From the IMG/VR virus record IMGVR_UViG_3300005253_002051: a DNA stretch of 45,744 bases; one strand, given 5' to 3'. Shown in pieces: positions 24,104 through 25,100 of the stretch (positions are counted from its first letter, which is position 1; every line of letters starts with the position of its first letter). The notes under the pieces are model-generated. The model was not told where the DNA came from. It searched no databases and was given only the letters and a program-made list of their open reading frames with translations. This DNA is from a virus. Position numbers and translations under genes: made by a program.

Positions 24104-24322
24104 GTGGAGAAAGAGATCGTTATTGTCCATTCAAAATATGTAGTATGTACTGGACCTGACGCGCCACACGATCACCCAATCGTTTACTACTTGATACCCG
24201 ACACAGGTAGAAATTATAGCATTTGTTTTTATTGTAGCAAAAAGTTTATATACGAGGAGCAAAAAAATGACAGAACAACTTATACCAATGGGGCAAGCGC
24301 GAGTACAAAAGGTACTGGTTGA
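24104..24322 (+). CDS. zf-CHCC-type zinc-finger protein (NDUFS6-like Zn-ribbon), GTG start
   Basis: VVCTGPDAPHDHPIVYYLIPDTGRNYSICFYCSKKF matches the zf-CHCC pattern VxCxG...HPxVYL......C.YCG..F. The 3' end overlaps the next gene by 56 nt. Confidence 0.5.
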   Translation: MEKEIVIVHSKYVVCTGPDAPHDHPIVYYLIPDTGRNYSICFYCSKKFIYEEQKNDRTTYTNGASASTKGTG

Positions 24323-25100
24323 TTTAGGAGACAAACACGCCGAAGCTATCTATTTTAACCGACCCGAAAAACAAGTGGTATGCTTTTCAACACAATTAAG
24401 CTGTGCTGTAGGATGTACTTTCTGCGCCAGTCCAGGACCAGAGAAAACAGTGAACCTAACGTATGGAGAGATGCTACACCAGTGTCACGAAATGTTGGAA
24501 GATAATCTTGTAGAAGGCAAGGTTATCTTGTTCTCTTTTATGGGCGAAGGCGAACCTCTACTAAACTATAGCAACGTTGTCACAGCAATGCAGTTGCTTC
24601 CGTCATATTATCCTAACTGTCGATTGGCACTGTCAACATCGGGCGCAGCACCAAAAAGAATTGTTGACCTTTCCAGGGAAGAGTTTGATGTTCCTTTCAA
24701 GCTACAAGTGTCGATGCATAGCTTAGATTCAGTGATAAGGAAAGAGTTAATGCCATTAGCTAGTCCAATTGAAGAAGTTATCGCTGCAATGGAAACTTAT
24801 AGAAAGAATCAACCCAACAGATCCATTGAGCTTAATTTTGCTCTTATGGATGGGATTAATGACCGCGATGAGGATCTGGAACTGATCAAGAAATACTTGG
24901 ATACAAGCTGGTATCTTAAGTTTGGTCGATTCAATCTGGTTTCTGGTGTGACATTTACTGGTAGCAATAGGATACAGGAGTTCGTTGACATTTTGACGAA
25001 AGATGGTTATACTGTTGAATATCATGCGTCTGATGGAGCTAATACTGGTGCAGCTTGTGGTCAAACTAGAGGCGAATACGTAGCTGCTTTTGAAAAGTAG
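24267..25100 (+). CDS. RlmN/Cfr-family radical-SAM RNA methyltransferase, N-terminally truncated core (277 aa)
   Basis: Cys cluster CAVGCTFC (CxxxCxxC) with an extra Cys 7 residues upstream, as for RlmN C118. FMGEGEPLLNYSNVVTAM, LSTSG and the C-terminal GAACGQ methyl-carrier Cys motif are present. Confidence 0.8.
   Translation: MTEQLIPMGQARVQKVLVDLGDKHAEAIYFNRPEKQVVCFSTQLSCAVGCTFCASPGPEKTVNLTYGEMLHQCHEMLEDNLVEGKVILFSFMGEGEPLLNYSNVVTAMQLLPSYYPNCRLALSTSGAAPKRIVDLSREEFDVPFKLQVSMHSLDSVIRKELMPLASPIEEVIAAMETYRKNQPNRSIELNFALMDGINDRDEDLELIKKYLDTSWYLKFGRFNLVSGVTFTGSNRIQEFVDILTKDGYTVEYHASDGANTGAACGQTRGEYVAAFEK

Follow-up and report, generated by a model that had tools for sequence, protein, structure and literature searches.

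For the radical methylation of unreactive ring carbons, the model enzymes are RlmN and Cfr. Escherichia coli RlmN is a dual-specificity radical S-adenosylmethionine (SAM) methylase that forms 2-methyladenosine at A2503 of 23S rRNA (m2A2503) and at position 37 of tRNA (m2A37), whereas Cfr, Cfr(C) and Cfr(D) are 23S rRNA m8A2503 methylases that confer resistance to phenicols, lincosamides, oxazolidinones, pleuromutilins and streptogramin A (PhLOPSA). Cfr is also a clinically important resistance gene. Here we describe a relative of these enzymes encoded by the IMG/VR virus record IMGVR_UViG_3300005253_002051, a stretch of 45,744 nucleotides to which we refer in full as the window. The gene occupies positions 24267 to 25100 of the plus strand, stop codon included, and its 277-residue product is an RlmN/Cfr class A radical-SAM methylase type protein (COG0820) that lacks the N-terminal domain of RlmN and Cfr. 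The open reading frame (ORF) is an intact member of a coherent family of short proteins under purifying selection and not a decayed truncation.

The closest characterized protein and best profile match is RlmN, whose core shares 25 to 33% identity with the window protein. Among Pfam models, only the generic Radical_SAM family matches (42.5 bits versus a cut-off of 29.5), and the CxxxCxxC [4Fe-4S]/SAM motif lies in a partial TIM-barrel radical-SAM core. The nearest model overall is the NCBIfam RlmN family TIGR00048, which aligns model positions 82 to 345 of 355 with residues 14 to 270 of the window protein (E=5e-41) at 140.8 bits, about half of the curated cut-off of 290. Of the solved structures, those that match best in sequence are the RlmN-like chain 6FZ6 (E=9e-30), E. 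coli RlmN (YfgB; 3RFA, 5HR7; E=4.6e-25) and Cfr (9P0P; E=9e-18), and the solved RlmN chains span E=9e-30 to 8e-24. An AlphaFold2 model computed from 34 family sequences has a mean predicted local distance difference test (pLDDT) value of 92.6. When this predicted structure was compared with the PDB by using Foldseek, the top 10 matches were all RlmN chains (E=3.5e-18 to 2e-14; template modeling (TM) scores of 0.76 to 0.83), and the next fold was that of NifB (E=2e-7). PHROGs returned weak generic radical-SAM matches and nothing more specific, and none of the PADLOC defence-system models matched. Sequence, profile and fold therefore all uphold the RlmN/Cfr-type assignment that an earlier, sequence-only reading of this DNA had proposed.

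The catalytic apparatus is complete, and every motif listed in that reading (the CxxxCxxC cluster, the resolving Cys, GEGEPLLNY, LSTSG and the GAACGQ Cys) was found in the 277-residue ORF. The radical-SAM [4Fe-4S] motif C46-x3-C50-x2-C53 (CAVGCTFC) is encoded at 24402 to 24425, and each of its Cys residues is kept in 147 or 148 of 148 short forms. Cys39 (24381-24383), seven residues before C46, corresponds to the resolving Cys C118 of RlmN and C105 of Cfr, and Cys264 (25056 to 25058), within GAACGQ, corresponds to the methyl-carrier Cys C355 of RlmN and C338 of Cfr and is a Cys in all 148 short forms. Glu26 (24342-24344) maps to RlmN E105 and Cfr E91. The SAM-binding GEGEP motif (residues 93-97; 24543 to 24557) is part of an MGEGEPLLNY block at residues 92 to 101, and the STSG block (residues 123-126; 24633 to 24644) is part of LSTSG at residues 122 to 126, in which S123 equates to S189 of the Cfr SAM1 site (PMC2836569). 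Mapped onto Cfr in this manner, E26 is E91, C39 is C105, C46/C50/C53 are C112/C116/C119, F52 is F118, S123 is S189, S149 is S212, H151 is H214 and C264 is C338, and all of these Cfr counterparts have been probed by mutagenesis (PMC2836569). In the window family, the same 10 residues (E26, C39, C46, C50, F52, C53, S123, S149, H151 and C264) are invariant in the 33 of 33 members compared. Translation probably begins at the annotated ATG, which is preceded at a distance of 7 nucleotides by a Shine-Dalgarno-like GAGGAG (24254 to 24259, plus strand) and is backed by an N-terminal sequence, IPMGxAxVxK, that is kept among homologues. Promoters and terminators predicted around the gene were no more numerous than in shuffled sequence.

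The window protein shares with RlmN the fold, the cluster motif, both mechanistic Cys residues, the Glu and the SAM-site residues, but it is without the HhH2 N-terminal domain. It has no match to the Pfam model for this domain (PF21016, RlmN_N). We also built a hidden Markov model (HMM) from 72 full-length homologues by using the region ahead of the position aligned to window residue 13, which has a median length of 77 residues. This HMM detects the domain in 73 controls and at 77 of the 80 top-ranking cellular genome loci, and it finds nothing in the short family or, with a best E of 0.48, in the window translated in all six frames. Because no frame of the window yields a match, the domain is absent and not split off. 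A split gene, with the HhH2 domain encoded elsewhere in the window, was rejected by the same six-frame search. The protein begins where the RlmN/Cfr linker behind the HhH2 domain ends and retains the β-strand extension that follows. Specifically, the strands that join the HhH2 domain to the core in RlmN/Cfr (PMC13001441) correspond to strands 13 to 19 and 24 to 31 of the predicted model, which precede a strand at residues 36 to 40 in the segment forming the extension and the first core strand (residues 13-40; 24303 to 24386, plus strand). The sequence-only reading had noted that an N-terminal part is missing, as is the case, and had put its size at about 90 residues; the missing portion amounts to about 65 to 77 residues and consists of the HhH2 domain only. 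Its term "truncated" is misleading because 277 residues is a normal length across a whole clade. A separate observation is that the RlmN-like genes of IMG/VR loci L102-L115 carry a different N-terminal region of 50 to 60 residues (DPYGFTYKEMSEVIGE...), unrecognised by the HMM; this region might represent a docking domain of a diverged or alternative type.

We define this unnamed clade here as proteins of about 255 to 315 residues that start at the β-extension and have no N-terminal domain. A search of 5.8 billion proteins recovered 44 clusters of near-full-length short proteins, together with partial sequences, at E=1e-182 to 3e-39. The near-full-length members are 257 to 301 residues long, a range that includes the window protein. 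A gap follows these clusters, and full-length RlmN proteins appear from E~1e-25 at 32% identity. Similarly, in an exhaustive profile search about 75 short representatives (50% clustering) outscore the best full-length RlmN. Among the matches listed in a scan of GTDB genomes there was only canonical full-length RlmN, at no more than 34% identity. The ratio of nonsynonymous to synonymous substitution rates (dN/dS) between the window gene and an 82%-identical orthologue is 0.08 at a dS of 1.36. Members are encoded by huge or jumbo phages, among the housekeeping genes of a Patescibacteria chromosome and within genomic islands.

Phylogenetic trees separate the short proteins from RlmN and Cfr. In a neighbor-joining tree of 79 sequences, the window family groups with Tunturiibacter phage gp170 (bootstrap 94) around a core of 27 sequences (bootstrap 100), and a second phage group comprising ANB28, Arash, Vibrio 496E54-1 and LR756500 is separate (bootstrap 100). 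In a tree of 237 sequences, 143 metagenomic and five phage-database short forms fall on one side, and 84 domain-bearing RlmN proteins and three Cfr proteins fall on the other, with a moderate bootstrap value of 63 for this split. The window protein lies outside the RlmN clade on the short-form side. A phylogenetic placement, which the sequence-only reading had proposed as a check, thus agrees with the RlmN/Cfr type and puts the protein inside neither RlmN nor Cfr. Note that the deep topology is provisional because only distance (neighbor-joining) trees without an outgroup were used. With this caveat, the short clade may be provisionally regarded as a sister branch of RlmN plus Cfr that is mainly phage-borne and also occurs in candidate-phyla bacteria.

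The nearest described counterparts are unnamed short proteins of phages annotated as COG0820 or "radical SAM", including A0A6J5RTK8 from an uncultured Caudovirales (284 residues), gp170 of Tunturiibacter phage Tunturi_5, and proteins of Stenotrophomonas phage ANB28, Salmonella phage Arash (gp133c) and Vibrio phage 496E54-1. They likewise have no N-terminal domain and carry an aromatic residue in place of a conserved Arg, and A0A6J5RTK8 is a structural match to the predicted model (TM 0.88), but they are just 25 to 33% identical to the window protein. The ANB28/Arash/Vibrio subclade further differs by a GGGCGQLW motif, a longer C-terminus and, in some members, a location beside NAD-salvage genes. 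A cellular counterpart is P0040 from Paceibacterota (GCA_021843285.1), a 280-residue member of the short clade that also has no N-terminal domain and has Tyr for the Arg. It differs from the window protein by its chromosomal housekeeping setting, its basic core (isoelectric point (pI) of 8.7) and its AACGQL sequence, kept as in RlmN. Its identity to full-length RlmN (39-42%) is also higher than that of the window protein to full-length RlmN (32%). In the literature searched, we found no functional study of the short clade or of a phage-encoded RlmN function.

The short proteins also differ from RlmN and Cfr at positions that contact the substrate. Where RlmN has T-x-R-(K/R)-x-(R/K) on its C-terminal substrate strand, the window protein has E251-Y-H253-A-S-D256 (25017 to 25034, plus strand), with His in place of the Arg and acidic residues flanking it. 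The column of H253 is Arg in all 87 domain-bearing forms, Cfr included, and in the 148 short forms it is Tyr (80), Phe (35) or His (29) and never Arg. Two further columns distinguish the groups: that of N190 on β5, which is Glu in 83 of the 87 domain-bearing forms and Asn in 140 of the 148 short forms, and that of K218 on β6, which is Asn in 86 of 87 and Lys in 139 of 148, respectively. The window protein carries all three clade-specific residues. At the E251 column, mostly Thr in domain-bearing forms is replaced by mostly Glu in short forms, and at the D256 column mostly Arg or Lys is replaced by mostly Asp or Asn. In a cryo-EM complex, the Arg corresponding to H253 (R327 of Cfr) touches the ribose of A2503 (PMC13001441), and an independent model puts it within 5 Å of A2503 (PMC12887959). 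This suggests that part of the pocket for the target nucleotide has been rebuilt in the clade, with the chemistry retained. The protein is consequently not the plain "minimal" RlmN of the sequence-only reading, since conserved substrate-contact residues are swapped across the clade.

These data are best explained, with a probability that we put at roughly 0.5, if the window protein is an active adenine C-methylase that recognizes tRNA or rRNA in an altered way. That the enzyme is active, that its substrate is RNA and that it methylates C2 are each the most likely assignment judged from sequence comparison, and we infer the chemistry because the catalytic set is completely conserved. A first SAM would methylate Cys264, and a second SAM, bound to the [4Fe-4S] cluster on C46/C50/C53, would be cleaved to a 5′-deoxyadenosyl radical. 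This radical would activate the methyl-Cys, which would then add to the adenine ring carbon, and Cys39 would resolve the covalent link between enzyme and substrate. The predicted target is the C2 of an adenine in an RNA of the translation machinery, belonging to the host cell or to the phage, at either tRNA position 37 or 23S rRNA A2503. Recognition must differ from that of RlmN because the HhH2 docking domain is gone and the basic substrate strand has been replaced.

A target among the translation RNAs is favoured because the closest characterized enzymes act on tRNA and rRNA, and because genomic context points in the same direction. P0040, a 37%-identical form, is chromosomal in Patescibacteria (the GyrB of its host is 87% identical to that of Candidatus Paceibacterota) and resides in a housekeeping, translation-rich neighbourhood between mraZ-rsmH-ftsL-PBP-murE-dedA and gyrB-secE-nusG-rplK. 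A 43%-identical member on a 289-kb contig lies inside a 20-kb region of 22 tRNA genes, and this region is flanked by aminoacyl-tRNA synthetase genes. In the window itself, a tRNA-Leu(CAA) gene (23935-24018, plus strand) is located 248 nucleotides upstream of the methylase gene, and the two genes are likewise adjacent in the closest relatives. Counting tRNA-Gly(UCC) and tRNA-Met(CAU), the window has three tRNAs, which with a SpoU-type RNA methylase add to the translation-related context. Both the tRNA-Leu adjacency and the count of three tRNAs had been noted in the sequence-only reading and were confirmed. Should the clade still methylate tRNA or rRNA, it would define the smallest unit with which enzymes of this type recognize a substrate and would provide huge phages with one more way to tune host translation.

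Several observations weigh against this explanation. The tRNA-Leu beside the methylase gene has G37 and thus cannot be an A37 substrate. The other two tRNAs of the window have A37 followed by A38, a context that is disfavoured by E. coli RlmN (PMC5130265). The earlier suggestion of an enzyme modifying the element's own tRNAs fails for tRNA-Leu. Linkage to tRNA genes is seen in near relatives of the window and at some huge-phage loci, and the majority of the approximately 80 viral loci lack a tRNA in the surrounding 6 kb. Tested as a general rule, tRNA linkage was judged not consistent for this reason. When the ORFs of 11 loci were compared all against all by BLAST, no operon partner emerged, and the methylase alone was common across lineages. 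Moreover, RlmN requires a whole tRNA and leaves the anticodon stem-loop alone unmodified (PMC5130265), Cfr's N-terminal domain anchors the H90/H91/H92 junction (PMC13001441), and the R25A and Q28A mutations in this Cfr domain reduce activity (PMC13001441, PMC2836569). The complete loss of Arg from the H253 column, with acidic residues in the window protein where the adjoining residues had been basic, likewise counts against this explanation. The phage-borne short cores are acidic as well (median pI of 5.3; 4.99 for the window protein), and sampled full-length RlmN cores have a median of 8.8. Core charge is nevertheless not decisive for RNA binding because the RlmN cores of Klebsiella (6.4) and S. 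aureus (5.8) are also low. A further point against the explanation is the fusion of one short form to an HD domain, described below with other hints of a different substrate.

An alternative that is possible, though we consider it unlikely, is that the same chemistry is applied to another class of substrate: an adenine in DNA, a free nucleotide or cofactor (dATP, ATP or NAD), or an RNA site unrelated to A2503 and A37. Such an activity would serve modification of the phage genome or nucleotide pool, or conflict with host defence. In favour of this proposal are the loss of the docking domain, the acidic core, the joint change of contact residues throughout the clade (Arg to Tyr/Phe/His, Glu to Asn, Asn to Lys, and Arg/Lys to Asp/Asn) and several other loci. 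We scanned 150 flanking ORFs from 39 loci encoding forms without the N-terminal domain (37 dereplicated IMG/VR loci plus L001 and L005) and encountered recurring enzymes of NAD salvage and nucleotide metabolism, namely NAPRTase/NAMPT (five), NUDIX (three), NMNAT-like (three) and MazZ-like dATP/dGTP diphosphohydrolase (two) proteins. In P0446 (759 residues), the short core, with Phe for the Arg and with Asn and Lys at the other clade-specific columns, is fused to HD and HD_assoc domains of the dGTPase/dNTP-triphosphohydrolase type, and this protein is encoded on two contigs (L184, 724-3003; L185, 521-2800). P0161 is found in an island beside an MmeI-type enzyme and a protein that combines radical-SAM and phosphatase domains. 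However, all of the closest characterized relatives act on RNA, P0040 has its translation-rich chromosomal setting, the HD fusion is a single case, and none of the nucleotide-metabolism neighbours adjoins the window gene or its near relatives. Likewise, C-methyl-adenine in DNA was not found in the literature searched. The stricter form of this proposal, in which the short clade as a whole is not an rRNA or tRNA enzyme and instead acts as a C-methylase of adenine, either within DNA or within a free purine nucleotide or cofactor, strikes us as decidedly unlikely; its hints are the HD fusion and the NAD-salvage, NUDIX or MazZ-like neighbours that recur in other phage subclades. If it were true, huge phages would possess a kind of C-methylated adenine not known before, or an altered nucleotide pool. 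The window protein documents a large clade that retains the whole catalytic apparatus yet has lost its docking domain and altered its target-nucleotide contacts, and a differing substrate would point to a new nucleic-acid or nucleotide modification.

The remaining explanations are less probable still. The canonical RlmN targets might be reached with the help of an RNA-binding partner supplied in trans, either a host factor or a 72-residue zf-CHCC-type zinc-finger protein encoded by an ORF (24104 to 24322, plus strand) whose 56-nucleotide overlap with the start of the methylase gene is kept in the nearest relatives. We hold this idea to be quite improbable, given that the zinc-finger gene is found 1.3 kb downstream in an 82%-identical relative, that no partner is conserved in other lineages, and that the protein has a weak zf-CHCC match and no other family. 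The zinc-finger protein can be regarded as a putative partner. Resistance by way of Cfr-type C8 methylation of 23S rRNA A2503, which the sequence-only reading had raised, gains something from the location of the gene on a mobile element and from the superfamily branch and catalytic residues common to Cfr and the window protein. The remaining comparisons argue against it and in our judgment make it very improbable. The three Cfr models give 82.4, 81.5 and 81 bits versus cut-offs of 468, 550 and 530, below the 141 bits obtained with the RlmN model, and Cfr, Cfr(C) and Cfr(D) form their own clade (bootstrap 100) on the domain-bearing side of the tree, without the window protein. The Cfr signature residues W101, K250, Y252, T325 and F330 are K35, S186, E188, E251 and D256 in the window protein. 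The α5/β6 loop segment has 25 residues, compared with 26 in RlmN and 31 in Cfr, such that the Cfr extension is absent, and the window protein lacks the domain by which Cfr is anchored on rRNA (PMC13001441). Phage genes of this kind are automatically annotated as "23S rRNA (adenine2503-C2)-methyltransferase", and since they carry no Cfr signature they should not be counted as cfr-like in resistance surveillance. Finally, it is barely credible that the gene is a non-functional remnant, that is, an RlmN gene decaying after loss of its 5′ end. Its product is indeed shorter than RlmN by a whole N-terminal domain, but the dN/dS value is low, the catalytic residues are invariant over the family down to 32% identity, the short representatives outscore every full-length RlmN, the start codon and ribosome-binding site are conserved, and no fragment of the domain persists in any frame.

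The immediate surroundings of the active methylase that we favour show additional features. The sequence-only reading had placed the gene next to tRNA-Leu, and although the adjacency holds, the zinc-finger ORF lies in between. The interval between the tRNA and this ORF (24019-24103) is a remnant of an ORF for 63 residues that is intact in relatives (L179, 9628-9819; L002, 9785-9976); its start (ATGACAGATTTACAACA) and end (ATTGGTCAATGGGATGAAATGTAA) are retained, and the middle has been lost by internal deletion. A 17-nucleotide motif, AGGAGCAAAAA(N1-2)ATGAC, is present only twice in the window, with zero occurrences expected by chance, and the two sites are the start of the methylase gene and this remnant. 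On the other side of the tRNA, a 253-residue histidine kinase core (HisKA plus HATPase_c; 23172-23933, plus strand) lacks a sensor domain, and no response regulator is encoded close by; the kinase gene stops 1 nucleotide before tRNA-Leu, an arrangement that is kept in relatives.

Some features are confined to related loci. About 3 kb upstream of the radical-SAM gene in two close relatives (L179, 4865-6638; L180, 1807-3580), genes for a glutaredoxin and a 484-residue SufB/SufD-type protein sit between a DUF3307 gene and a DHO_dh-like gene, and their proximity fits a need for Fe-S supply. The window has neither gene at the corresponding spot (21055-21263). In the subclade of Vibrio phage 496E54-1, the short RlmN-like gene adjoins NAD-salvage genes, for example at L097 (1-667). 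In L183 (4855-7858), P0161 is encoded directly behind a 709-residue protein with Fer4_12 (radical-SAM) and histidine-phosphatase domains, and the presence of an MmeI-type restriction-modification enzyme and a serine recombinase nearby makes this locus look like a genomic island. Further short forms occur in genomic islands as well.

The element that carries the gene is most likely a huge or jumbo phage, an assignment that remains an inference because the window contains no structural gene. Its genes nearly all run in one direction, and their products include a T4 gp30.3 homologue, Hsp20, ClpS, the SpoU-type methylase, RpiB, an aldehyde dehydrogenase, TelA and ABC-transporter parts. A nearly identical locus is present on a 142-kb contig, and more distant family members are on contigs classed as viral in IMG/VR. 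The window is the 45,744-bp contig, obtained from marine sediment by metagenomics, that carries KKN46800.1 ("hypothetical protein LCGC14_0669280"). A megablast search of 12 kb around the gene gave no match among phage records, and eight unannotated window ORFs had no match in PHROGs. An 858-residue protein (17380-19956, plus strand) has the shoulder and repeat domains of major vault protein (PF11978, E=2.8e-20; PF17795). Across 50,697 phage records it matches three uncultured phage genomes of 462 to 735 kb and no others, at 39 to 40% identity over 97 to 99% of its length, and it looks like a vault-like protein common to huge phages.

Several other genes of the window, all on the plus strand, merit mention. 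The SpoU-class 2′-O-methyltransferase (37394-38020; PF00588, E=8.5e-18), with weak RlmB/TrmH matches far under their cut-offs, is the second putative RNA-modifying enzyme of the window. The aldehyde dehydrogenase (26766-28289) scores above the cut-off for L-piperidine-6-carboxylate dehydrogenase (781 versus 730 bits), a lysine-catabolism enzyme that is unusual for a phage-like element. A membrane protein with weak Vut_1 or queuosine-precursor-transporter resemblance, under the cut-offs (26267-26764), RpiB (29650-30156; E=1.8e-55) and an AAA_28 kinase-like protein (34433-35008) may be connected with the salvage of nucleotides or cofactors. Positions 3048-15354 hold a series of cell-envelope genes of a sort typical of cellular genomes, which encode an S41 peptidase with a PDZ domain, TelA, a von Willebrand A protein, an ABC permease, an ABC ATPase and two NMT1/SsuA-like binding proteins, one of which is fused to OmpA. 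Near the other end of the window, a 1670-residue subtilase (S8; 39252-44264) carries eight He_PIG Ig-like repeats together with cadherin-like and flagellin-IN motifs.

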